The notes under the pieces were generated by a model. The model did no database searches and had not been told where the DNA came from. It was given only the letters and a program-made list of their open reading frames with translations. Positions 27,497 to 38,849 of a DNA stretch of 41,347 nucleotides are shown in pieces. Position numbers and translations under genes: made by a program. Source of the stretch: a virus (lineage: Duplodnaviria > Heunggongvirae > Uroviricota > Caudoviricetes); IMG/VR virus record IMGVR_UViG_3300025889_000082, positions 1 to 41,347 of that record. One strand, written 5' to 3'. Each line of letters begins with the position of its first letter. Position 1 is the stretch's first letter.

Positions 27497-28431
27497 ATAA
27501 GTCTGGATATTATATTTATAACGTGTTCTACAGATGGATGGCATTCAAATGTTTCTTTCTTCTCTAAGCATCCAATTAGAGGTTGTACAGAGTCTATAGT
27601 GTCCCAATACTCAAGAGCATATTTCATGTTAGAGCTGCAATGTAATCCACAGCTTCCTCCAATATATTCATGTCTCCACCCCTGCTCTCCATATCTATAA
27701 GGAGTTCTAAACTCAGGATTGATAGCTGATCCTAATTCAAATATTAATGTTTCAGTGGTGGCTGCTAGATGTAGAATACCAGAGTCCATAGTGACTACAG
27801 CTGTAGAATTGTTAAGGATGTACCAAGTTTCAGATATGGATGTCTGATTCATTAGGTTGATGATGTTGGTGTTTCCTAATTCATGTACAGGTTTGTTTAC
27901 ATTAAAGAAACCTGTCTCAGAACTATCTTTACCTATGGCAACCACTTTGTATCCCAGCTCAATTAACTTTTCAGATAGTTTAAGCCAATTATCTTGAGAC
28001 CAAGTTCTATTAGGCCAGCTGTTAACAGGATGTATCACTACATATTTACCTGATATATTGTTAACCATTTGTTCTGTTGGTCTATAGAAACAATCCATCT
28101 CATCTCTTCTAAGCATAAATCCTAAATGAATTGCATGGAACTGCCTGATATCCATCATGTTATGCTTCATTTCTACACCTCTCTCATCCTTCTTACCTAC
28201 CAAATAGAATGAATTATGAACAATGTAATTACTTTGTATATACTCCATGTCTATAGAGCTGTTCTTATAGCTCTTCTCTACATAAGGATTCATCTTAAAT
28301 AACTCAGGCATCTGAGACAGTATAGTTATCTTTCTACCATAGCTTTCAGATAGTTTTTTGATGGTGGGAGTAGCACAAATAAGGTCCCCAAGACCATTAC
28401 ATTCTGATAAGTTTAAACAAACTGGTTTCAT
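27493..28431 (-). CDS. GT9-like glycosyltransferase (ADP-heptose:LPS heptosyltransferase superfamily) with C-terminal Cys cluster
   Basis: GLGDLICATPTIKKL, VIHP..SWPNRTW, DSGILHLAA, CGLHC...CLE...FECHP. Confidence 0.8.
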   Translation of the reverse strand: MKPVCLNLSECNGLGDLICATPTIKKLSESYGRKITILSQMPELFKMNPYVEKSYKNSSIDMEYIQSNYIVHNSFYLVGKKDERGVEMKHNMMDIRQFHAIHLGFMLRRDEMDCFYRPTEQMVNNISGKYVVIHPVNSWPNRTWSQDNWLKLSEKLIELGYKVVAIGKDSSETGFFNVNKPVHELGNTNIINLMNQTSISETWYILNNSTAVVTMDSGILHLAATTETLIFELGSAINPEFRTPYRYGEQGWRHEYIGGSCGLHCSSNMKYALEYWDTIDSVQPLIGCLEKKETFECHPSVEHVINIISRLI

Positions 28432-28432
28432 T

Positions 28433-28479
28433 GTTGTTTATTTTCAACAAAGTTACTATATTTGTGGGGAATATTCAAC
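28433..28479. promoter_or_regulatory. Overlapping divergent promoter pair
   Basis: Plus strand GTTG(28433-36)-N20-TATATTTG(28457-64); minus strand GTTG(28479-76)-N20-TAACTTTG(28455-48). Confidence 0.65.
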
Positions 28480-28488
28480 AAATTTTTT

Positions 28489-28857
28489 ATGCAAATAGAA
28501 GTAAGTATTGGAGAAATAGTGGACAAATGGACCATTCTTTCTATCAAAGCCCTAAATATTACAGACAAAGATAAGTTAGTCAATGTATTTAAAGAACGTA
28601 ACTATCTAAATACCATCATAGATCCTGAGGTTTTACATGATTCTTTAACAGATAGTTTGCTCACAGTAAACAAAAGACTCTGGGATGTAGAGGATAGACT
28701 CAGAGATTGTGAAAGAAGCAAGGTGTTTGATGACCACTTTGTACAACTAGCCAGATCTGTTTATATGTTGAATGACAAGCGAGCACATATTAAAAAAGAA
28801 ATTAATATTAAGTGGGGATCTGACTTTATAGAGGAGAAATCCTACCAGCCATACTAG
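28489..28857 (+). CDS. DUF6165-like helical protein
   Basis: Likely start MQIEVSIGEIVDK at 28489. The pattern VSIGEIVDK.TIL.IK...VN..LW.VED.LR...FVQLARSVY..ND.RA.IKKEIN...EEKSY is recalled as DUF6165. Confidence 0.7.
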   Translation: MQIEVSIGEIVDKWTILSIKALNITDKDKLVNVFKERNYLNTIIDPEVLHDSLTDSLLTVNKRLWDVEDRLRDCERSKVFDDHFVQLARSVYMLNDKRAHIKKEINIKWGSDFIEEKSYQPY

Positions 28858-28867
28858 CAAAAAAAGA

Positions 28868-28899
28868 TTTGGTAGTTTCATTTTTTTACCTTACTTTTG
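28868..28899 (+). promoter_or_regulatory. Bacteroidota primary-sigma promoter TTTG-N20-TACTTTTG upstream of the lysis cassette
   Basis: Exact consensus spacing in an intergenic region. Confidence 0.75.
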
Positions 28900-28946
28900 C
28901 GAGGAATTCTATAGTTTAACCTAAATAGGTCTTCCTGACCACATTG

Positions 28947-28976
28947 TACACCCATGTTCTGGGTGTATTTTATTTT
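28947..28976 (+). terminator. Intrinsic terminator-like hairpin
   Basis: TACACCCA-tgttc-TGGGTGTA (8-bp stem) followed by TTTTATTTT. Confidence 0.6.
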
Positions 28977-28981
28977 ATACC

Positions 28982-29278
28982 ATGAGAGAAAATTCTAGTA
29001 TCCAAGCCTTCAAGGTGTGGGTGTTCCCTAGCCTAGTATCAATCATCAGCCTTTTAATATGGAATGATGTAAATGAAATCAAGTCTGATGTCAAAGCCCT
29101 AATGGCCCAGTCTAATATAGACAAGACACGTATTGATAACCTTGAAAGACAGGTATACAAAACAACTGCTTCCTATCCTACTATTCCCCCTGTGACACCA
29201 GTGGTAATGGAAACTGTAGGGGTTCTTCCTGAACAATTAACACTTAAACAGAAAAAGTATGAAAAAGTTCTTCTCTGA
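28982..29278 (+). CDS. Putative holin/antiholin-like membrane protein
   Basis: One N-terminal TM helix plus a coiled-coil; first gene of the lysis cassette. Confidence 0.5.
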   Translation: MRENSSIQAFKVWVFPSLVSIISLLIWNDVNEIKSDVKALMAQSNIDKTRIDNLERQVYKTTASYPTIPPVTPVVMETVGVLPEQLTLKQKKYEKVLL

Positions 29279-29501
29279 TCTATTTAATGACAGTAATTCA
29301 ATTAATGAGAAAGCTGTAATTGGATTTGCAGCATTTGTTATGATGGTGGTGTTTGCTGTAGCAGATATTGTTACAGGGGCTATGAATAAACCACTCTTAG
29401 TTAATGAGTTCATATTTGACTCATTCAAGGTGTTAACTATTGCTTGCTTTGGTATTGCATCTGTTGACAAATGGATAAATAAAACCAAAGGAAATGAATA
29501 A
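29259..29501 (+). CDS. Putative holin (2 TM)
   Basis: 80 aa with two hydrophobic helices and a charged C-terminus, upstream of the endolysin. Confidence 0.6.
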   Translation: MKKFFSDLFNDSNSINEKAVIGFAAFVMMVVFAVADIVTGAMNKPLLVNEFIFDSFKVLTIACFGIASVDKWINKTKGNE

Positions 29502-30090
29502 ACTTCTTACAGGAATAATAGTGGTGCTAGTGTTTTATGTAGCGTTCTCAAAGAATGGCTGCACTCCTAAGCATCAGAAGTCTGATACAACTATTGTACA
29601 TGATACAACCTGGTCTGTACATGATAGTCTTATTTACAGCAAACCTAAACCTGCTAAGATTATACATGACACTATTCCTCCAATCTTCTTAGCTGATACA
29701 AACTATGCACGTCTTAAACAACAGTATGATTCTTTATTAAAAGAATTCTTTGCTCTTAAGATATATGCTGATACAGTGAGACTAGACACTCTTGGATATG
29801 TTTCTATTATAGACTCTGTGCAGAAGAATGGTATATTAGGTAGATCATTCCACACAAACTATAAGATTCCTACAGTGACTGTTACTAAGACTATCACTCA
29901 CTATGCTCCTCCTACATCAGCTCTATTCTTTGGTGGTGGTGTTCAGGGTAACAAGACCATGGGAGTAACAGGTGCTCATATTGGACTTCTTTATAAGTCT
30001 AAGAAAGATAAAATCGTTGGACTCAACGTGGGCTCAACCATAGGTGAACAATTAACCTTTGGCATAAGCTCTTATTGGAAAATTAAATAA
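29494..30090 (+). CDS. Exported/membrane-anchored lysis-cassette protein (candidate spanin-like)
   Basis: N-terminal hydrophobic segment followed by a Cys, short coiled segment, and C-terminal Gly-rich amphipathic beta-strands ending SYWKIK. Confidence 0.5.
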   Translation: MNKLLTGIIVVLVFYVAFSKNGCTPKHQKSDTTIVHDTTWSVHDSLIYSKPKPAKIIHDTIPPIFLADTNYARLKQQYDSLLKEFFALKIYADTVRLDTLGYVSIIDSVQKNGILGRSFHTNYKIPTVTVTKTITHYAPPTSALFFGGGVQGNKTMGVTGAHIGLLYKSKKDKIVGLNVGSTIGEQLTFGISSYWKIK

Positions 30091-30097
30091 AAATAAC

Positions 30098-30277
30098 ATG
30101 AGTATTATATCATTTATTAAATCATTGTTTGCTAAACGTGAAGAACATGTTAAATCTGTTGAACAAATAGACAAACAAATAGAAGAGGCTTTATATAAAG
30201 TTGAACCTGTAGAAGCTAAACCTAAGAAGAAAGCTAAAAAGAAACCTGCAAAAAAGAAAGTAAATGGATCTAAGTAA
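30098..30277 (+). CDS. Small protein (59 aa) with Lys-rich tail, missing from the ORF track
   Basis: Translated by hand: MSIISFIKSLFAKREEHVKS...KPKKKAKKKPAKKKVNGSK. Fills the gap and overlaps the endolysin start. Confidence 0.6.
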   Translation: MSIISFIKSLFAKREEHVKSVEQIDKQIEEALYKVEPVEAKPKKKAKKKPAKKKVNGSK

Positions 30278-30863
30278 GTTAAAAGGACATGTTCCTGATA
30301 AAGTGATAGAACAAATTCCTGGTATACAGGAAAAGTTTGGCATTAATACAGGGCTAAGACTTGCTCATTTCCTAGCACAAGCTGGTCATGAAAGTGGTGG
30401 TTTTAGAATAGTTAATGAAAACCTTAACTATTCAGCTAAAGGATTGCAGGGTATATTCAAAAAGTATTTCCCTTCTGAAGCTGTAGCTTTAGATTATGCT
30501 AAGAAACCACAGAAGATTGCTAATAGGGTGTATTCTGGTAGAATGGGTAATGGTAATGAAGCTAGTGGAGATGGCTATAAATTCAGAGGAAGAGGATATA
30601 TTCAATTGACAGGACGTGATAATTACACAGCATTTGGTAAGTCAATTGGTGTAGCTATAGAAGAGAACCCTGACTTGGTGTCTACACAATATGCACTATC
30701 ATCAGCTGCTTGGTTTTGGAGCAAAAACAATTTGAATAAGATTGCAGATACAGGAGCTACAGATGCTGCTGTTACAATGATTACTAAGAGAGTGAATGGT
30801 GGTACCATTGGCTTGGCTGATAGAATTAAACACTTTAAAGAATTTTATTCACTACTAACATAA
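30264..30863 (+). CDS. Endolysin, glycoside hydrolase family 19
   Basis: RLAHFLAQAGHESGGF, ENLNYS, FRGRGYIQLTGRDNY, ITKRVNGGTIGLADR. Confidence 0.92.
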   Translation: MDLSKLKGHVPDKVIEQIPGIQEKFGINTGLRLAHFLAQAGHESGGFRIVNENLNYSAKGLQGIFKKYFPSEAVALDYAKKPQKIANRVYSGRMGNGNEASGDGYKFRGRGYIQLTGRDNYTAFGKSIGVAIEENPDLVSTQYALSSAAWFWSKNNLNKIADTGATDAAVTMITKRVNGGTIGLADRIKHFKEFYSLLT

Positions 30864-30869
30864 ACCAAC

Positions 30870-30998
30870 ATGGCAAAAGCAAAAAATGCAGGCAGTGCTA
30901 AGAAGATCACTTTTGGAAAACGCAAGGGTGGTAAAGCTGCTAAGACGTCAGGACCTAAAGATAAAGCTGTAAGTAAATACAGAGGACAAGGAAGATGA
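30870..30998 (+). CDS. Small basic protein (42 aa) ending YRGQGR, missing from the ORF track
   Basis: MAKAKNAGSAKKITFGKRKGGKAAKTSGPKDKAVSKYRGQGR; ATGA overlap with the next gene. Confidence 0.6.
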   Translation: MAKAKNAGSAKKITFGKRKGGKAAKTSGPKDKAVSKYRGQGR

Positions 30999-31459
30999 TA
31001 AATTTATTATTGATATTAACATTATGGTTTCAAACACCATCTGTTGCCATTGGTAATATAACAAACAAGGTGAAGATTGGAGCACTTGCTGGTAATCGTA
31101 AACTTGAGTTTGGTGTAAGAAATGTTTTAGAAGAAATCCTACAGGACAAGAGCTATGACATAGACCATAGCTCTGATAGTAGATTAGATATTGACATTAT
31201 ATATTTAGATGTTCTAAAAACACAATCTAGTTTTTCTGTAATGCATTCTAACAAAGAGTCTGTAGTTATTAGACTATATGGAACAATAATTAAAGATGGT
31301 AAAGTTATTAAGAAAGCTCTTGTTGAAGAGTCTGCAGATGAAACAAGTATGTCCACTTTATTGATAGATGAGGGGGGCAAATTTAACCAACAGAATCTAT
31401 CCACAGCTTTGAAGAAAGCATGTAATTCACTGGTTAACAAACTATTAGACACAAAATAA
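30995..31459 (+). CDS. Exported alpha/beta protein (CsgG/LptE/TolB-N-like fold, tentative)
   Basis: Signal-like N-terminus; VAIGNITN...FGVRNVLEEILQ...; C-terminal helix TALKKACNSLV. Confidence 0.45.
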   Translation: MINLLLILTLWFQTPSVAIGNITNKVKIGALAGNRKLEFGVRNVLEEILQDKSYDIDHSSDSRLDIDIIYLDVLKTQSSFSVMHSNKESVVIRLYGTIIKDGKVIKKALVEESADETSMSTLLIDEGGKFNQQNLSTALKKACNSLVNKLLDTK

Positions 31460-33148
31460 ATGAAAAAACTACTATTTTTTGTCACAATTTTTCAAATAAT
31501 TGTGACATTTTCTTATGCACAACTTCCAGAATTAAGGTTAACACCTACAGTTCAAAGCGTCAATTCAAGAGGAACTCAGATAGTTAAGGGAGATACAATT
31601 GTTCTTGACCTTGAGCTTAAACCAAATGGTTCAGCTGTAAGGTCTTTTTACTTAGATTTCCAACATCAGATTACAGCTATCAATTTTATTGATGTTGTAT
31701 TTCCAACATCAAGCTCAGCTCTTCCACAAGGAGCTACTGCTACCTTCCAGAATAACTACTATCCTGGATACACATTCAATAAGAATGCTAACAACACAAC
31801 TACAGATGGTCTTACCAACTTTAACTATGCTAACTATACATATACACAAGGAGGTAACAAAGCCATCAATCGTATATGGATTAACACAGCTTCTGCTACC
31901 AATCTTAGTGATGGAGTTATTGGCAGATTAAGATTTAAGGTGGCTAATATAGATGCAGGTTTTGCATATGACTCAGTGTATTTTAATGCTGCTTATGCAT
32001 ACACAGCAAACTATAACACCCTAAGTAGTGTATACATGCCTAAGCCTACAGGGGCTTGGGTAACACCTATTCCTAGTTCAAATGCTTTGATTAATGGTCA
32101 GGTGGATGTAGGTAAGATTGTTCCTACAATATATATTGTGGACACATTAAGTGGTATTGTCAAAGCACAAGTGACTCCTTCAACTAATGGTACCTTCTTC
32201 TTAGGATCTGAACTATCTCCTAATACATGGTATAGAGCATTTGCTGTAGTGCCTTCAGATAGTTTAGGTAGTTATTTGAATAAAGCCATTACAGTTAGTG
32301 ATTATACAGCAGCACAGAATGAGTTTATCAAACAGGATTTGTTTGGAGGATTTACATTAACCACTATGAAATCAGGAGCTAGTTTCTTAGCTGCTGATGT
32401 AAATAAAAATTACAGATTTGATGGTGGAGATTTAACAGCTTTGTTTGCTCAGGTAAGTTTAGTAGATACAATTATTAGACCTACTGCTGGTCAAACTGTA
32501 TATACAATTCCAATGTTTGCAGCTAGTGAATTTGATACATTGTCTCCTGCTTACTGGCATACAGCTAATCAATATGGTGTATTGTTTAAGACAGGAACTA
32601 CAGCTCAAGATTTAAAACTTAAATACTTAATCCCTGGAGACATTAACAGATCACATAGCTCTCAGGTGGTTCTTCCAGATAACACAATACAAGCATACAG
32701 TGTGAAAGCATCTGCTGTGAACACTACAAGAAAGCCTGGTACAATTGATGTAAGTTTAAACAATCTTACAGTGTTAGGTAATGAATTCACAATTCCTATC
32801 AATGTAGATACAAAAGGAGACACATTATCAGGACTACAGTTTGAATTTGTATATGATCCAGCTAAGGTGAAGTTTGAGTCAATAAAGATAGACATGCCTA
32901 CATGGTTAGTATTTGTTAACAACACTGCTGGAAAGATAAAGTTTGGGGCTGTAGACAGAGAACTAAGAACAGGATACACAGGTGGAACACCATTTAAGTT
33001 AGTGTTCTCTACACTAGAAAATGGATTAAACATCAACTCTGCTATCAAAGTGACAGAAAACATGGATGCTTCTAATATGCAGGGTACTCAGTTAGGTATG
33101 AATCTAAACTCAACAACAATTAAATTAACAGGATATAACAACTTCTAA
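31460..33148 (+). CDS. Secreted protein with cohesin-like domains and a dockerin/EF-hand-like segment
   Basis: Signal peptide; N- and C-terminal beta-sandwiches (LSGLQFEFVYDPAKVKF is cohesin-like); ADVNKNYRFDGGDL and GDINRS are Ca-loop-like. Confidence 0.6.
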   Translation: MKKLLFFVTIFQIIVTFSYAQLPELRLTPTVQSVNSRGTQIVKGDTIVLDLELKPNGSAVRSFYLDFQHQITAINFIDVVFPTSSSALPQGATATFQNNYYPGYTFNKNANNTTTDGLTNFNYANYTYTQGGNKAINRIWINTASATNLSDGVIGRLRFKVANIDAGFAYDSVYFNAAYAYTANYNTLSSVYMPKPTGAWVTPIPSSNALINGQVDVGKIVPTIYIVDTLSGIVKAQVTPSTNGTFFLGSELSPNTWYRAFAVVPSDSLGSYLNKAITVSDYTAAQNEFIKQDLFGGFTLTTMKSGASFLAADVNKNYRFDGGDLTALFAQVSLVDTIIRPTAGQTVYTIPMFAASEFDTLSPAYWHTANQYGVLFKTGTTAQDLKLKYLIPGDINRSHSSQVVLPDNTIQAYSVKASAVNTTRKPGTIDVSLNNLTVLGNEFTIPINVDTKGDTLSGLQFEFVYDPAKVKFESIKIDMPTWLVFVNNTAGKIKFGAVDRELRTGYTGGTPFKLVFSTLENGLNINSAIKVTENMDASNMQGTQLGMNLNSTTIKLTGYNNF

Positions 33149-33519
33149 TGAAAGAATTAAAAGTATTACTAGGAATTTATTTCCTAATCATTATAACAGT
33201 GATTGCTTGTACAAAGGTGGCATCTGTACCAGTAATTGAACTAGGTGAAAAAGCTACAGCTACAAAGATTAATAGTGTATATCCTCCTATCACTACAGGT
33301 AAGGTGGTAGCTAATCTATCAGTGACTCCTGGAGCTAAATATTCAATTCAGTTAACTAATTTAACTGGAGATGTTAAATATGCAACAGGTTTTACAGCTG
33401 ATAAAACATTGGTAACTAAGGATTTAGACTACTCAGATGTTAAATCTGGAGACTATATGATTGTATTAATTGATATAGCTGGTAATGAATATAAACATAA
33501 TATAACTATTAAAAAATAA
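33148..33519 (+). CDS. Lipoprotein consisting of a T9SS C-terminal sorting-domain-like fold
   Basis: Lipobox-like VIAC; VYPP...YSIQLTNLTG...LDYSDVKSGDYMIVL...ITIKK resembles the type A CTD pattern. Confidence 0.5.
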   Translation: MKELKVLLGIYFLIIITVIACTKVASVPVIELGEKATATKINSVYPPITTGKVVANLSVTPGAKYSIQLTNLTGDVKYATGFTADKTLVTKDLDYSDVKSGDYMIVLIDIAGNEYKHNITIKK

Positions 33520-33524
33520 TCAAC

Positions 33525-33827
33525 ATGGCAGAAGAAAAAGAAGAATCAACTGGTACCTCTATCAAGAGCATTATCATTGGTTTAATCAGCACAATCACAC
33601 TAGGTGTGGGTGGTTTTATTACAACTAAGTTAACAGGAGGTGATGAGAAAGAAACTCCAGCTCAACAAGCTGCTCCAGTTATTAACATCCAAAATACCAA
33701 TCAACAGTCTCAAGCTGCAGGTGGTAAAACTGTTATCATCAAGGAGAAAGAAGCTGCAACTAAACCTGCACCTGCTCCTAAGAAGAAAGAAGGGGATGAA
33801 TTTAAAGAAGAAGCTCCAAAGTGGTAA
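33525..33827 (+). CDS. Single-TM membrane protein with low-complexity tail
   Basis: IIIGLISTITLGVGGFIT TM; Ala/Pro/Lys-rich tail. Confidence 0.6.
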   Translation: MAEEKEESTGTSIKSIIIGLISTITLGVGGFITTKLTGGDEKETPAQQAAPVINIQNTNQQSQAAGGKTVIIKEKEAATKPAPAPKKKEGDEFKEEAPKW

Positions 33828-33828
33828 T

Positions 33829-33966
33829 ATGGCACAGAAGAAAAAGAAACCTGTTGCTCAGAGATCTAGAAGATCTGGTATAAAGAAAGCTGAGCTAGTA
33901 AAATCAAACCAAGAAACAATTGCAAACGTATGGACTTATTTAAACACAAACCAGCTGAGAAAGTAG
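33829..33966 (+). CDS. Possible small basic protein (45 aa)
   Basis: ATG 1 nt after the previous stop; MAQKKKKPVAQRSRRSGIKK...; overlaps the next gene by 37 nt. Confidence 0.35.
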   Translation: MAQKKKKPVAQRSRRSGIKKAELVKSNQETIANVWTYLNTNQLRK

Positions 33967-34520
33967 AACAACCTTCAGGGTTCAAAGAATTATTAAATGC
34001 TATGATGCTTAGACGTTGGTATATCACAGCGTTGGTATTAGGATCATTTGTGTTAATCATAGGTGGAATATTTATGGCTCTTAACAATAACATATCTGCT
34101 GCTGCAGAATGGAAAGAGCTGTTGTTATTAATGTTAGGTGCATTCATTGGTAGCTATGGTAAAATCATAGACTACTGGTTCTCTGATACAGACAAGGATA
34201 AGATGTTAGTACAGAAGATGGATGAGGAAGATGGTACTACACTGTCTCACACCAATGATATGAAGGAGTCTAACAAACCTGTAGCTCCATTGATTCCTGA
34301 TGCATTTGTGCAAGGAGCTGTAGCTGCTAGAGAACTTGCTAAAGATGAGCAAGAGCATAGACAAGCTATGGAGATTGATGAACAAGAGCATGAGCAAGAA
34401 ATGGAAAAGCTCAAGCTTGAACATGAGATCAAAGCACATAGACAATGTGATCATGTATATGCTGACGTGGATCATGATGGTGACTATGAATGTATTCACT
34501 GTGGTAAAATCAAAGAATAA
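33930..34520 (+). CDS. 2-TM membrane protein with Glu/His-rich coil and C-terminal Cys/His motif
   Basis: Two hydrophobic helices; EQEHEQE repeats; CDHVY...ECIHCG. Confidence 0.65.
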   Translation: MDLFKHKPAEKVEQPSGFKELLNAMMLRRWYITALVLGSFVLIIGGIFMALNNNISAAAEWKELLLLMLGAFIGSYGKIIDYWFSDTDKDKMLVQKMDEEDGTTLSHTNDMKESNKPVAPLIPDAFVQGAVAARELAKDEQEHRQAMEIDEQEHEQEMEKLKLEHEIKAHRQCDHVYADVDHDGDYECIHCGKIKE

Positions 34521-35239
34521 TGATTAAAATATTATTAGTGTTTGTAACATTTTTATATACAAATTTGTTACAAGCACAATTAGCAAAGACTTCTACAGAG
34601 CAGTATAAAGCTAGCTTTGAGAAGGCTATTGATATTTCAAGCTTTATGGATTATGAAGGACCTCAAATCCCCATCCAAATCCTTAAGTGTGGTATCAATG
34701 ATGAGATGTATGAGATGTACCCTGAGCTGAAAGAGAAACGTGTAGGCTTAGGTGTGGCTAATATATCCATGGAATATTTAGAGAATCTAAACAGATTCAA
34801 GTTTACAGAAGATAAGACTGAAATCAAGAACAGGATGGTGAAGCAGTTCCAAGCTAGTCAAGCTGGAATATCTGAGAACAAACTGGATGGACGTGGCAAG
34901 ATTAACCTTGCTAAGTATTTTGTAACTATTGAATGTTATGATTATAGTATTTCAGAAGATGAGACTATTTCTCTTAAAGAGGGTACAAAGCAACTTATGG
35001 TTACCAGGATTGGTTTACAGGTTAGATTCACTGATGCTGAGACTGGAGTGGTATTTAGTGGTTCTGGGCTTGGTGATGCAAAGACTACTAAAGAAACTGC
35101 TGGTATAACTTCTGATGCTGCTTTAGATCCTGTTAAGTTTAATCAATCTACTATATCAATAGCAACTAAGAAAGCACTAGATATAGCTTGTGCTAGGATA
35201 TTAGATAGGATGGTGAAGAAAGGGATCTTCACAAAATAA
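34520..35239 (+). CDS. CsgG/HfaB-like exported protein
   Basis: Signal peptide; RVGLGVANISMEYLENLNRFKFTE, GLQVRFTDAETGVVFSGSGLG, ATKKALDIA follow the CsgG-family pattern. Confidence 0.65.
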   Translation: MIKILLVFVTFLYTNLLQAQLAKTSTEQYKASFEKAIDISSFMDYEGPQIPIQILKCGINDEMYEMYPELKEKRVGLGVANISMEYLENLNRFKFTEDKTEIKNRMVKQFQASQAGISENKLDGRGKINLAKYFVTIECYDYSISEDETISLKEGTKQLMVTRIGLQVRFTDAETGVVFSGSGLGDAKTTKETAGITSDAALDPVKFNQSTISIATKKALDIACARILDRMVKKGIFTK

Positions 35240-36462
35240 TGAAACAGTTTATTTTTATTCTAATAGCAGTAGTATTACTACCAGTATATGCGTATTCTCA
35301 AACCATTATACAAACTTGGACAGATCCTTGTACAAAAGTTACAAGCGTCTTTAGTATTCCTATTACTGGCTCTACCACTATTATTATTTATAATAAATCT
35401 AAAACTTTTACAGCTAGTGATGTTTATAGTGGGGCTTTTCAAGCCTGGATCAGTCAAGCTTTCGAGGAGTATAAAAAGTTCTCTGCGTGCTCAGTGGCTC
35501 AAGCAACACAAACTGCTACAAATATTACAGCATCTGCTGTCTCGTCAGCTGTAGGTGGAGCTGTTGCATCAGCAGCTAGCTCTGCTGCTTCCTCTGCAGC
35601 AAGTGCTGCAGCTTCTAGTGCAGCTAGTTCTGCTGGTGGAAGTGTAGCTACAGGAGGTGGAGACACAGGTGGGGGTGGATCAACATCCTCTTCTAGTTCA
35701 GAGTCTAGCTCTGGTGGAGGAGGAGGAGAATCAAAATCTGAATCCAAATCAGAAAGTAAATCTGAAAGTAAGGGGGGAGGGGGTAAGTCAGGAGGTAAGG
35801 GGGGAGGTAAAGCTCAAGCTAAGATGAACCCTATACTATTCAACTCTGACTTGACAGCAGGACAGACAATGGATAACTCTATACAGCTTGTAGTGACATC
35901 TGGTATATCACAGTCATCCATGGCTGGTGATGTAAGCTGGGGACTCACAGGAATGGTGTGGAGTAATCTTCAGCAGTTTGCTCTAAGTGGACGCTACACC
36001 AAAATGAACTTTGATGAAGGTAAATTAAGTAGGATAGATAATACTGGTGCTACCATAGTACATGCTTTTGGTAACACTTTTGGTTTCTTAACATATGCAC
36101 AAATATATCCACTAGGAAAATGGGGAGTGACAGGCATAAATGCTACAGTGGCTGTTCAAAAATCAGAACAACAATTCACTACAACTCATTCATTACTAGT
36201 GTTTTATACTAAACCATTTACAATTAACAGAAAACTGACCATATCTCCTGACCTATATATCTCTGGGAGCCCTGTAACTTATGGAATAAAGGATAACACC
36301 TTTGTGATAAGTGAAGATATAATGTTCCTTACAGGCTTCAATATGGACTACTCAATTACAAAAAGATTTAAGTTTAACACTGGTCTTAAGACTAGTCTAA
36401 GCACCAATCCTTCTATACCAATGCTGTTCTTTGCAGTGGTGGGAAGTAAGATAAATTTATAA
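35239..36462 (+). CDS. Exported protein with Ser/Ala/Gly linker and C-terminal outer-membrane beta-barrel-like domain
   Basis: Signal peptide; SAASSAA, GGG and ESKS x4 linker; alternating amphipathic strands ending VVGSKINL. Confidence 0.55.
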   Translation: MKQFIFILIAVVLLPVYAYSQTIIQTWTDPCTKVTSVFSIPITGSTTIIIYNKSKTFTASDVYSGAFQAWISQAFEEYKKFSACSVAQATQTATNITASAVSSAVGGAVASAASSAASSAASAAASSAASSAGGSVATGGGDTGGGGSTSSSSSESSSGGGGGESKSESKSESKSESKGGGGKSGGKGGGKAQAKMNPILFNSDLTAGQTMDNSIQLVVTSGISQSSMAGDVSWGLTGMVWSNLQQFALSGRYTKMNFDEGKLSRIDNTGATIVHAFGNTFGFLTYAQIYPLGKWGVTGINATVAVQKSEQQFTTTHSLLVFYTKPFTINRKLTISPDLYISGSPVTYGIKDNTFVISEDIMFLTGFNMDYSITKRFKFNTGLKTSLSTNPSIPMLFFAVVGSKINL

Positions 36463-36464
36463 CT

Positions 36465-36493
36465 AAAAAAGTTAAAATAGTTATAACTTTTTT
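36465..36493 (+). terminator. AT-rich inverted repeat, possible terminator
   Basis: AAAAAAGTTA (36465-74) and TAACTTTTTT (36484-93) form a 10-bp stem just after a stop codon. Confidence 0.4.
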
Positions 36494-36513
36494 GGTTATT
36501 GTAAATTATTGAT

Positions 36514-36548
36514 ACTCATTGTTAATATTAAAATTCAACATATCTTTG
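36514..36548 (+). promoter_or_regulatory. Putative promoter ACTCATTG-N19-TATCTTTG
   Basis: The -7 element ends 7 nt before the ATG; the upstream octamer is shared with 13586-13593. Confidence 0.55.
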
Positions 36549-36555
36549 TTAGATT

Positions 36556-37665
36556 ATGGCAATACCAAGTAGACAGATAGGCTGGGGCACAACAGACAAC
36601 TTGTTGTGGGAAATCTCTAAACAGATAGAGGGCATTGGTTGTATCATTGCGTGTGGTACTTCTGGGTATGGTACGTCAGGTACATCAGGATACTCAGGAG
36701 ATAAGTATTTAACTACATCTAGTAGTTCATTTACACTAGGTACTTCTACAACATTAACTGTTGGAACTGGTTTAGCTTACACTGTAGCCCAAGACATCAT
36801 CATAGCACATGATATTGATAATCATCAAACTTGTATGGTTGAAAGCTATGATCCTGTTACAGGTATAATGGTTATAGGTCCTCCTTTTACAGTTACTGGT
36901 AGTGGAACCTATACATCTTGGTTTATTAATCTTGATGGAGCAGCTGGGGGTAATGGTACAAGTGGCACTTCTGGAACTTCTGGGTCATCAGGGTCATCTG
37001 GTTCTAGTGGAACTACAGGAACTAGTGGATCTTCAGGTAGCTCAGGAACTAGTGGAATAAAAGGAACAAGTGGCACTAGTGGTACAAATGGCTCTTCTGG
37101 TACTGCTGGAACAAGTGGGTCTTCAGGAACTTCTCCTGTGTTTCCTTTTCCAACAGTATTTGGATTATTCTCTCAAACAGGTGATAGTACTCCAGTTACA
37201 AATACAGTAACAGAAACAACAATCATTAATGGTGGTGTTGGTACACTGACTGTAGGAGCTAATCAATTTTCTGTTGGTGATAGTTTTAGAGCAGACTTTG
37301 GTGGTGTTGTAAGCACTGGTAATAATCAAACTATTAGACTTAGAGTGAAAGCAGGATCTGTAATATTGTTAGATAGTGGAGCACAGAATATAAATAATGT
37401 TACTAACAATGTTTGGTCTTTATCAATCAACTTTACTATTAGACAGTTAGGTGCTGCAGGTGTAGCGTCAATTGTTTCTTTAGGAACATTTAATTATGCT
37501 AAGACAGTAAATGGTACTGTGGAAGGATTTTCTTTCAATACTGTGAATAACACTACATTTAACACAACAGTTAGTAATACATTAGATGTTACAGTTGAAT
37601 GGGGTGCTGCTACTACAGCAAATACTATCTATAGTGACATATTTGTATTAAATAAAATATATTAA
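36556..37665 (+). CDS. Short fibre/decoration protein with Gly-Thr-Ser repeat
   Basis: MAIPSRQIGW N-terminal module; about 95-aa domain paralogous to the long fibre; about 60 aa of GTS/GSS; beta-rich C-terminal domain. Confidence 0.7.
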   Translation: MAIPSRQIGWGTTDNLLWEISKQIEGIGCIIACGTSGYGTSGTSGYSGDKYLTTSSSSFTLGTSTTLTVGTGLAYTVAQDIIIAHDIDNHQTCMVESYDPVTGIMVIGPPFTVTGSGTYTSWFINLDGAAGGNGTSGTSGTSGSSGSSGSSGTTGTSGSSGSSGTSGIKGTSGTSGTNGSSGTAGTSGSSGTSPVFPFPTVFGLFSQTGDSTPVTNTVTETTIINGGVGTLTVGANQFSVGDSFRADFGGVVSTGNNQTIRLRVKAGSVILLDSGAQNINNVTNNVWSLSINFTIRQLGAAGVASIVSLGTFNYAKTVNGTVEGFSFNTVNNTTFNTTVSNTLDVTVEWGAATTANTIYSDIFVLNKIY

Positions 37666-37667
37666 TA

Positions 37668-37805
37668 ATGGCAATACCTTCTAGACAAATAGGATGGAGT
37701 ACAACTGATAATTTGCTTTGGCAAATATCCAAGCAATTGGAGTATTTGACACAAGTGACAGCTAATGGTACTACTACAACCACTACTACAACAGCAGCTC
37801 CTTAA
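37668..37805 (+). CDS. 45-aa mini-protein: shared N-terminal module plus poly-Thr tail, missing from the ORF track
   Basis: MAIPSRQIGWSTTDNLLWQISKQLEYLTQVTANGTTTTTTTTAAP; the first 25 aa nearly duplicate the upstream gene. Confidence 0.85.
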   Translation: MAIPSRQIGWSTTDNLLWQISKQLEYLTQVTANGTTTTTTTTAAP

Positions 37806-37832
37806 TAGGAACAAAACCAACAAACTACATAT

Positions 37833-38849
37833 ATGAAGGATTTAAAATTTATCTGTGCACAACCAGATGATGTCTACTATACATGGCAGGTTCATCTTTG
37901 GTTGGAAAGCTTGAAGAAGCTTGGACATTCAGACAAGGCAATTGTTTTAGTGTACACACCCAGTTTCAGAGAATACAATAAGAAGTGGGAAAAGATAATG
38001 GAACTGTATCCAGAAGCAGACTTTGCTTTCTATAAGGATACAGGAGATGTAAGTCAATACTTAGGAGTATATATTCCTATCCTACGTCCATATTGCTTAA
38101 TGAGATATTTCCAGGACCATCCTGAGATGGTTACCAAAGCAGTGTTTTATTGTGATTGTGATGTAATCTTCACAGAGAAATTTGACCTTGAGAAATTCAA
38201 GGATGATGATGTTAACTACTTATCTGATACAAACAGTTATATTAGTGCTTCATATTTTGATAGTAAATTAAAAGATGTTCTTCCTGATAAACTGGAAGAA
38301 TACAAAACTAGAGATGTTCTAGCTGAGGTGACAAGTTTAGTGGGCATCAGTAGAGAAATAGCTGAAGCTAACAATGATCACTCAGGAGGAGCTCAGTATT
38401 TCCTAAAGAATGTAGACTCTGAGTTTTGGAAGAAGGTGATGAATGACTGTATACTAATACGTGTCTACCTTCAGAATATAAACAAAGCTTTCTTTAAAGA
38501 TGAAAACAAAGGGTTTCAAAGTTGGTGTGCTGACATGTGGGCTGTCCTTTGGAACATATGGCTTAGAGAGAAAGAAACTAAAAACATTCCTGAATTAGAA
38601 TTCTGTTGGTCTTCAGATCCTATCGAGAAACTAGAGAGAACAACACTATTGCATAATGCAGGTATTACAGGACAGAACACCATGGGCTATCCTGCTTTTT
38701 ATAAAGGAGCATATCACACTGGTAAAGATCCTTTTCAAGATACACACTTAGATAAGGTGTTAAATAATGAGGAGTCTAAGAAACGTGCAACTCATTACTA
38801 TCTAAGTCAACTTATTGAATTAAAAAACAAATATAACCTTAACTATTAA
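37833..38849 (+). CDS. GT-A glycosyltransferase resembling plant peptidyl-Ser galactosyltransferase (SGT1/GT96) and Hyp O-arabinosyltransferase (HPAT/GT95)
   Basis: DDVYYTWQ, ILRPYCLMRYF, DCDVIF, GGAQYFL and WCADMWA occur in the same order as recalled HPAT/SGT1 motifs (Y.xWQ, N[RK]P, DxD, W..EMY). Confidence 0.65.
   Translation: MKDLKFICAQPDDVYYTWQVHLWLESLKKLGHSDKAIVLVYTPSFREYNKKWEKIMELYPEADFAFYKDTGDVSQYLGVYIPILRPYCLMRYFQDHPEMVTKAVFYCDCDVIFTEKFDLEKFKDDDVNYLSDTNSYISASYFDSKLKDVLPDKLEEYKTRDVLAEVTSLVGISREIAEANNDHSGGAQYFLKNVDSEFWKKVMNDCILIRVYLQNINKAFFKDENKGFQSWCADMWAVLWNIWLREKETKNIPELEFCWSSDPIEKLERTTLLHNAGITGQNTMGYPAFYKGAYHTGKDPFQDTHLDKVLNNEESKKRATHYYLSQLIELKNKYNLNY

Follow-up and report, generated by a model that had tools for sequence, protein, structure and literature searches.

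Envelope proteins of the CsgG type have been published in phages only as CsgG/CsgF pairs, namely in the pelagimyophages of SAR11 and in the Methylophilales phage Melnitz of OM43, where a role in the timing of lysis was speculated and cell capture is also suspected (PMC9004378). An uptake or leak role for the curli pores of pelagimyophages is mentioned in PMC9004378 with reference to Zaragoza-Solas et al. Here we analysed a stretch of 41,347 nucleotides (the window), which makes up the first 41 kb of an IMG/VR virus record of 105 kb (IMGVR_UViG_3300025889_000082; completeness estimate 92%). Its source is probably an uncultured phage of Flavobacterium-type bacteria, with hosts among the Bacteroidota. 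The window carries a block of seven open reading frames (ORFs), g1 to g7, at 30995-36462 on the + strand, downstream of an endolysin gene and of three further genes designated gm3, gm2 and gm1 (Table 1).

Like the pairs of the pelagimyophages (HTVC008M group) and Melnitz, the block encodes a phage envelope protein with a CsgG fold (g6), lacks amyloid subunit genes and lies near a lysin. In contrast to those pairs, it has no CsgF, the g6 of its clade has neither a lipobox nor a Pfam CsgG match of its own, and the hosts are probably Bacteroidota. The block further comprises a second CsgG/YajG-class protein (g1), an outer-membrane barrel with a tethered domain (g7), a cohesin/dockerin protein (g2), a lipoprotein (g3), two inner-membrane proteins (g4 and g5) and two small basic peptides (sb1 and sb2). 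The bacterial CsgG/HfaB channels (PF03783; PDB 4UV3, 6L7A) share the fold of g6, which belongs to that family distantly, by way of intermediates; unlike them, g6 has no lipid anchor and its hairpins are hydrophilic. With its N-domain, long disordered linker and 12-strand barrel, g7 resembles FapF and the beta-domains of type Va autotransporters. However, it has no sequence relationship with FapF, its N-domain is a small alpha/beta domain and not a coiled coil, and NanC/KdgM match the barrel at least equally well. The adjacency of a CsgG/PelC/LptE-class gene and a barrel gene is also a feature of the 'ring or plug plus barrel' exporters PelC-PelB and LptE-LptD. None of the models for defence or exclusion in PADLOC-DB was matched by the 10 proteins searched at E 0.01. 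The sequence-only reading of this DNA had recognised no described system of such composition, and we likewise found no description in the literature of this composition joined to a lysis cassette in Bacteroidota phages; the phage CsgG/CsgF clusters are nevertheless a precedent (PMC9004378).

Neighbouring genes of the block abut or overlap by 1 base, with the single exception of a 102-nucleotide gap between g4 and g5, which contains the conserved ORF sb2. Each of the seven large products has a signal peptide, a lipobox or transmembrane (TM) helices. The coupled set of envelope genes described in the sequence-only reading was thus confirmed, with the two small ORFs in addition. Signal-like N-terminal segments were found in g1, g2, g6 and g7, and in g2 and g7 a nearly invariant Gln stands right after the predicted cleavage site. 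This Gln agrees with the 'Q-rule' of Bacteroidota signal-peptidase-I substrates and is consistent with the finding that the sole cultured carrier of the block is a Flavobacterium phage.

A scan of viral contigs with g6 revealed 512 relatives, mostly on contigs of tens to hundreds of kb. The protein collection held about 6400 relatives of g6 and 6737 (about 6700) of g5, none of them named. Loci were compared in a set of 80 fetched viral loci, where the commonest order, present in most, was g1-g2-g3-g4-g5-g6-g7. The genes g1, g3 and g5 were missing or unrecognisable in some lineages, and the order g4-g5-g6-g7 was constant across backbones, jumbo phages and a myovirus among them. The co-occurrence expected in the sequence-only reading was borne out, as the gene order recurs over dozens of distinct viral contigs, more than by chance. 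The block was also present in phage records of 238, 269 and 324 kb, which are without the 1853-residue giant protein of this phage. The cultured carrier, Flavobacterium phage immuto, a 160-kb myovirus grown on Flavobacterium sp. LMO8, has the cohesin protein, a g4-like protein, g6, g7 and g1, located amid replication and nucleotide-metabolism genes and 8 kb from the nearest muramidase-type gene. Two distant short marine contigs, of which one came from a JGI sample and the other from an SRA run, encode lipidated g6 proteins with 35-37% identity. The distant contig L087 retains g6-g7-g1, and the distant contig L085 retains g4-like, g5-like, sb1-like, g6-like and g7-like genes. When 185,579 bacterial and archaeal species, one genome per species, were scanned with g6 as a single protein, only two short contigs of metagenome-assembled genomes were found. 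The module is practically absent from bacterial genomes. On the two contigs found, which are binned as 'Thiobacillus' and 'Micavibrio' (L083 and L084), g6 was present at 80% and 95% identity, respectively; in all likelihood they are pieces of phage DNA mis-binned as parts of bacterial genomes.

Comparison across the 80 loci revealed that g6, with 80-94% identity, was the most conserved gene of the cassette and the best-conserved protein among those compared. The endolysin showed 48-82% identity and g7 33-89%, while g2, at 22-70%, was the least conserved gene of the block. Residues 61-102 of g5 were identical in 20 aligned homologues, with 2-3 codons in use per site (50 sequences), and residues 71-110 of g6 were identical in 65 distinct sequences, with 2-4 codons per position. 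Since the residues are invariant and synonymous codons change freely, the near-invariance of g5 and g6 is a result of purifying selection at the protein level. Recent transfer, or a DNA element, as the cause of the near-identity was ruled out by the codon variation.

A search of this phage's genome for the terminase PF03237 found nothing. Conservation of the backbone was gauged from all ORFs shared, at a coverage of at least 60%, with three phage genomes of 113-131 kb (G004, G005 and G009). Only 16 ORFs were in common. The run gm3-gm1-lysin-g1 to g7 was contiguous in all three genomes, g5 not being found in one of them. Identity to these genomes was 80-86% for g6, 65-68% for g1, 48-74% for the lysin, 59-62% for the g7 barrel, 56-57% for g5, 48-61% for g4 and 49-68% for gm3; gm1 was 42-55% identical in the distant genomes. 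Because the shared ORFs outside the block were only 22-39% identical, the cassette is a poor marker of phage relatedness. It far outlasts the phage backbone.

The link to the holin-like and endolysin genes had been given too little weight in the sequence-only reading. The position of the lysin varies among loci: it is upstream, on either strand, in some, and in others gm2 alone or gm2 together with the lysin stands between g5 and g6. Likewise, gm1 precedes the lysin in some phages and follows g7 in others. These differing arrangements show that the linkage of the lysis genes was maintained through rearrangement. As gm3 to g7 are contiguous in the three genomes and far better conserved there than the backbone, the lysis genes and envelope genes behave as one cassette and one evolutionary unit, and probably constitute one transcriptional unit as well.

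Four copies of the motif TAnnTTTG lie on the + strand of 28401-38000, three of them intergenic (28457, 28892 and 36541). The one at 28892 precedes gm3 and the one at 36541 precedes a tail-fibre gene; in this genome the block is situated between tail-fibre genes and other structural genes. Taken by themselves, the promoter-like motif before gm3 and the terminator-like hairpin after g7 suggest a single transcript from gm3 to g7. A scan for sigma-70 promoters gave a result no better than shuffles. Between the motif at 28892 and the start of gm3 there is also a GC-containing hairpin of 9 bp with a run of T (28946-28968), which could be the terminator of the upstream gene or a structure of the 5' leader. 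Among the small ORFs, sb1 was kept as a protein in 33 related loci and has a distant marine version directly before a g6-like gene, and sb2 was kept in 19 loci, in some of which it is located after g6. The 59-residue ORF before the endolysin was kept in the closest relatives and could encode a small factor in lysis, such as a membrane-active cationic peptide or a regulator of the holin. A weak match of gm3 to the holin PHROG 15431 was obtained (E 0.0028).

Table 1. Features of the cassette in the window (aa, amino acids; GH19, glycoside hydrolase family 19).
Feature	Position	Strand	Description	Evidence or remark
TAnnTTTG (TACTTTTG)	28892..28899	+	promoter-like motif, Bacteroidota-type -7	upstream of cassette; motif match only
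gm3	28982..29278	+	98 aa, N-terminal TM and coiled-coil-like tail; candidate holin or i-spanin-like	hydrophobic segment 9-30
gm2	29259..29501	+	80 aa, two-TM, holin-like	two hydrophobic segments
gm1	29494..30090	+	198 aa, exported, probably lipidated	signal-like N-terminus, Cys23
59-aa ORF	30098-30277	+	amphipathic N-terminus, Lys-rich tail	directly before endolysin, overlaps endolysin start
Endolysin	30264..30863	+	GH19-type	PHROG 181 E 2e-74; Pfam Glyco_hydro_19 E 5e-11
sb1	30870..30998	+	42 aa, unannotated, very basic, ending ...KYRGQGR	overlaps g1 start
g1	30995..31459	+	154 aa, exported, YajG (Lipoprotein_16)-like	Pfam PF03923 in homologues
g2	31460..33148	+	562 aa, secreted modular protein, C-terminal cohesin and dockerin-like loop	Pfam
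g3	33148..33519	+	123 aa, lipoprotein, small beta-sandwich	lipobox VIAC
g4	33525..33827	+	bitopic inner-membrane protein	TM 16-34
sb2	33829..33966	+	45 aa, unannotated, basic	overlaps g5 start
g5	33930..34520	+	inner-membrane protein	hydrophobic segments
g6	34520..35239	+	239 aa, exported CsgG-fold protein without lipobox	AlphaFold2 and Foldseek
g7	35239..36462	+	407 aa, outer-membrane barrel protein	alignments, AlphaFold2, Atlas structural matches
Terminator	36459..36498	+	probable terminator, 16-bp hairpin then T run	RNAfold -13.5 kcal/mol; after g7

AlphaFold2 models were used for g6 and g7, and the folds of g1 and g2 were assigned from sequence. The model of g6, obtained from an alignment that included distant relatives, had a predicted local distance difference test score (pLDDT) of 80. 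Its top Foldseek matches in PDB were CsgG chains (E 9e-8 to 1e-5; TM score 0.44-0.58), led by the structures 4uv2/6l7a (E about 1e-7). CsgG was the best match in AFDB and BFVD too, PelC and LptE were also among the matches, and the best viral structural match was a phage protein named CsgG. At the sequence level, g6 itself matched no Pfam family and its family profile reached E 0.15 against the CsgG of PDB, while 15 of 35 aligned g6 relatives matched the Pfam family CsgG (PF03783), with a best E of 3.7e-23. On the model and its matches, g6 is a protein of the CsgG fold and superfamily. Its distant relatives are classic lipoproteins, some bacterial ones being about 500 residues long with a large additional C-terminal region. 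Characterised members of the CsgG/HfaB class export or anchor surface proteins.

The relationship of g1 to this class is less direct. All 16 homologues of g1 examined showed a weak match to Lipoprotein_16 (PF03923), with a best E of 1.7e-6, and the copy in the window was below the cut-off. The N-terminal anchor of g1 differs by lineage, being a TM extension, a lipobox or a plain signal peptide. A C-terminal helix motif, KFNQ..S.A.KKA, is common to g1 and g6, and a profile comparison of the two aligned the C-terminal helix only, with a probability of 10%. We regard g1 as a probable distant paralogue of g6.

The product of g7 consists, in order, of a signal peptide, an alpha/beta N-domain of 60 residues with two conserved, disulfide-bearing Cys, an Ala/Ser helix, a linker and the barrel. 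The linker is disordered, Ser-rich (SESK/EEKK) and very variable in length. The C-terminal 12-strand barrel was modelled with a pLDDT of 70-85. NanC/KdgM were its top matches (TM score 0.67), and FapF and autotransporter beta-domains were matched also. No plug or pore helix was recognised in g7, and no sequence match to FapF or autotransporter transporters was found. As modelled, its architecture fits polypeptide transporters such as FapF and the autotransporter beta-domains as well as it fits simple porins. The periplasmic tail of g4 is disordered, rich in Pro, Ala and Gln, and ends in a conserved C-terminal peptide, KKEGDEFKEEAPKW, whose terminal Trp was invariant in an alignment of 22 homologues. 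In g5, one strong and one borderline hydrophobic segment are followed by a charged tail with a conserved C-terminal His/Cys motif. In many homologues of g5, HxxCxH...CxxC is preceded by two or three EF-hand-like DxDGDG loops (for example L027:3468-4133), and g5 of the window has a charged helix in place of the first of these loops.

Residues 440-552 of g2 matched the cohesin family PF00963 at 25.3 bits against a Pfam cut-off of 24.1. Cohesin domains were present in 17 of 25 homologues of g2, C-type lectin domains in 9 and Por_Secre_tail, a sorting domain of the type IX secretion system (T9SS), in one. The g2 family profile showed a weak likeness to the solved dockerin 8ajy (E 6e-4), in which no single stretch passed alone. 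No Pfam dockerin match was obtained in g2, and Atlas clusters of its relatives carry Dockerin_1 (28-58% of members) and Por_Secre_tail. Neither the cohesin domain nor any Pfam family was significantly matched by the N-terminal half of g2. By its sequence, g2 appears to be a variable, adhesin-like component. The lipobox Cys of g3 was invariant among 29 homologues. Its match to Por_Secre_tail (E 0.017-0.018) remained below threshold, at 15.9 bits against 27 for PF18962 and 15 against 23 for TIGR04183, and a T9SS C-terminal domain match at E 0.05 was reached by 2 of the 29 homologues. A T9SS type A sorting domain in g3 was rejected, the scores being below cut-off and g3 being a lipoprotein and not a signal-peptidase-I substrate. 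Of the protein assignments made in the sequence-only reading, therefore, those of two inner-membrane proteins and a beta-barrel stood as given; of its two CsgG/LptE-like proteins g6 was the firmer and g1 the weaker, its cohesin/dockerin-like protein kept the cohesin with a weak dockerin likeness, and its lipoprotein like a secretion C-terminal domain kept the lipidation, with that likeness below threshold.

The reading that we favour, tentatively and at something short of an even chance, is that the block encodes a late-made trans-envelope scaffold, which would export or anchor g2, the variable adhesin-like protein, and in this way remodel the surface of the infected cell. It is favoured because near-invariant machine parts stand beside a fast-changing modular lectin/cohesin protein, and because g6, of the CsgG/HfaB class, and g7, which is FapF/autotransporter-like, resemble outer-membrane devices for polypeptides. 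The neighbouring genes in relatives, which are also exported or envelope-related (Endonuclease_NS, TonB-dependent-receptor-like proteins, lectins), and the persistence of a minimal core of cohesin protein, g4, g6, g7 and g1 in the unrelated myovirus immuto were counted on the same side. We infer the formation of a complex, the export of g2, the timing and the purpose as follows. The block would be made late in infection together with the lysis genes, and all its large products would leave the cytoplasm via the Sec pathway. The proteins g4 and g5 would sit in the inner membrane, while g1 and g6, of the CsgG/YajG fold class, would lie in the periplasm beneath the outer membrane, probably as oligomeric rings. 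The 12-strand barrel of g7 would insert in the outer membrane, with its small domain on a long flexible linker. The conserved parts, lipoprotein g3 included, may then form the scaffold by which g2 is exported to, or anchored at, the cell surface. Such remodelling of the surface of the dying cell could mask receptors, against loss of progeny on debris or against superinfection, or could make infected cells sticky; receptor masking, exclusion of other phages and adhesion of infected cells are thus the candidate benefits. Resistance of Flavobacterium to phages maps to the gliding and T9SS surface machinery (10.1101/2020.10.02.323337; PMC9804748), which makes surface masking a plausible benefit. 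A fuller version of this reading is more doubtful: that the block is a self-contained export or anchoring system of abundant lytic phages of freshwater Bacteroidota, in which a CsgG-class ring, a FapF/autotransporter-like barrel and an inner-membrane pair install variable lectin/cohesin adhesins before lysis, thereby masking receptors on debris or capturing neighbouring hosts.

Several findings weigh against a scaffold for export or anchoring. The lipobox Cys is not present in the g6 of the window and of its close phage relatives, in which the first Cys is residue 57. As judged from the sequence and the monomer model, the g6 hairpin 133-172 aligns with the first transmembrane hairpin of CsgG and has Glu146 and Glu148 on the side that would be turned to lipid, its tip being the least conserved part of g6. 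The second hairpin region (194-210) is of low confidence, poorly formed and hydrophilic. For want of a lipid anchor and of membrane-compatible hairpins, a pore of the CsgG type is therefore not supported for g6. No matches like CsgF, CsgE, CsgA or CsgB were found in Pfam, PHROGs or NCBIfam, and no amyloid subunit was recognised. The 12-strand barrels include plain porins, NanC being the top match of g7. Moreover, g2 of the window is without a T9SS sorting domain and has no evident route across the outer membrane. The trans-envelope apparatus proposed in the sequence-only reading thus survives in part: its arrangement is plausible because the products cover the inner membrane, the periplasm and the outer membrane, but g6 lacks the pore features of CsgG.

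The proximity of the lysis genes fits equally well a part in lysis itself. In 53 of the 61 loci having at least 5 kb upstream of g6, an endolysin or gm2 was found within 6 kb, and in some phages these genes lie within the module (g5-gm2-lysin-g6). The products could accordingly join the two membranes in the manner of spanins, as a link of several proteins that ruptures the outer one once the wall has been cut, or could act as a lysis timer, as has been speculated in print for the CsgGF of Melnitz (PMC9004378). The contiguity of gm3 to g7 and their conservation far above that of the backbone in three distant genomes, together with the promoter and terminator motifs suggestive of one operon, would suit such a role. 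The tether of g4 with its docking peptide and the lipoproteins of the cassette recall the logic of i- and o-spanins; as with spanins of the Rz/Rz1 type, an inner-membrane protein that would span the periplasm and putative outer-membrane lipoprotein(s) are encoded beside the holin-like and endolysin genes. In contrast to Rz/Rz1, however, there are seven to nine genes and not two, the g4 tether is disordered and not a coiled coil, and g3 is a folded beta-sandwich of 100 residues. The near-invariance of g6 and g5 is an extreme of conservation unlike that of spanins; great variability is the norm for both holins and spanins. In addition, gm3, gm2 and gm1 are more ordinary holin or spanin candidates already in the cassette, the module of immuto is remote from its nearest muramidase-type gene, and it is not obvious how lectin, cohesin and dockerin domains would help to disrupt a membrane. 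On balance we regard an accessory role in lysis as rather unlikely, though it is the strongest of the competing readings.

It is improbable that the block is a loose set of independent envelope 'morons', such as a receptor blocker, a porin and an adhesin, that cluster beside the lysis genes. The absence of g1, g3 and g5 from some lineages, and the manner in which other exported or envelope genes (nuclease, TonB-dependent receptor-like proteins, lectins) come and go around the block, would be expected of such a set. Translational coupling through the 1-base overlaps and the constancy of g4-g5-g6-g7 across differing phage backbones argue otherwise, as do the conserved docking-type peptide at the C-terminus of g4 and the near-invariance of g5 and g6, which suggests many fixed interfaces. 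We hold a channel for uptake or leak to be very unlikely, that is, a CsgG-like ring and a barrel which open the outer membrane to nutrients or macromolecules, or depolarise the envelope. The CsgG fold of g6 and the likeness of g7 to NanC/KdgM porins would suit it, and the idea is present in the literature as cited in PMC9004378 from Zaragoza-Solas et al. Nonetheless, g6 is without membrane-compatible hairpins, g2, g3, g4 and g5 would be left unexplained, and the module is placed in what is probably a late cassette. Virion components, which the position of the block between tail-fibre and other structural genes might suggest, are scarcely credible and were rejected, in line with the sequence-only reading, since Sec signal peptides, lipoboxes and TM anchors direct the products away from the cytoplasm, the compartment in which tailed virions are put together, and the immuto block lies in a non-structural region.

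Other genes were observed around the module in relatives. In two loci (L075:8591-12267 and L052:2303-5760), a TonB-dependent-receptor-like protein of 825 residues (CarboxypepD_reg, Plug, beta-barrel) and a lipoprotein of 400 residues adjoin the module, a pair that recalls the SusC/SusD arrangement. In immuto and jumbo-phage relatives, a signal-bearing Endonuclease_NS nuclease is encoded alongside the module (L027:8644-9246, L033:9656-10279, L045:8758-9360 and L001:5052-5630); this nuclease is absent from the present genome. A family-2 glycosyltransferase and a calcineurin-like metallophosphoesterase lie within the module of a 238-kb phage, between the holin-like gene and g6 (L027:4501-5995). 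C-type lectins were also among the neighbouring genes of the modules of relatives.

The present analysis contributes codon-level evidence of selection on g5 and g6, the finding that the cassette outlasts its backbone, signals of an operon, conserved small ORFs, lipidated versions in distant relatives and an unfavourable assessment of the pore hairpins. Phages carry the module very commonly, and it crosses unrelated backbones. Its conservation points to a strongly selected step in the infection of Bacteroidota, one that is described in no model of lysis or exclusion, and the cultured carrier immuto makes the question directly testable. If the block does export or anchor g2, it would be a new, compact device for outer-membrane delivery; if it acts in lysis, it would make good the absence of spanins from many Bacteroidota phages.

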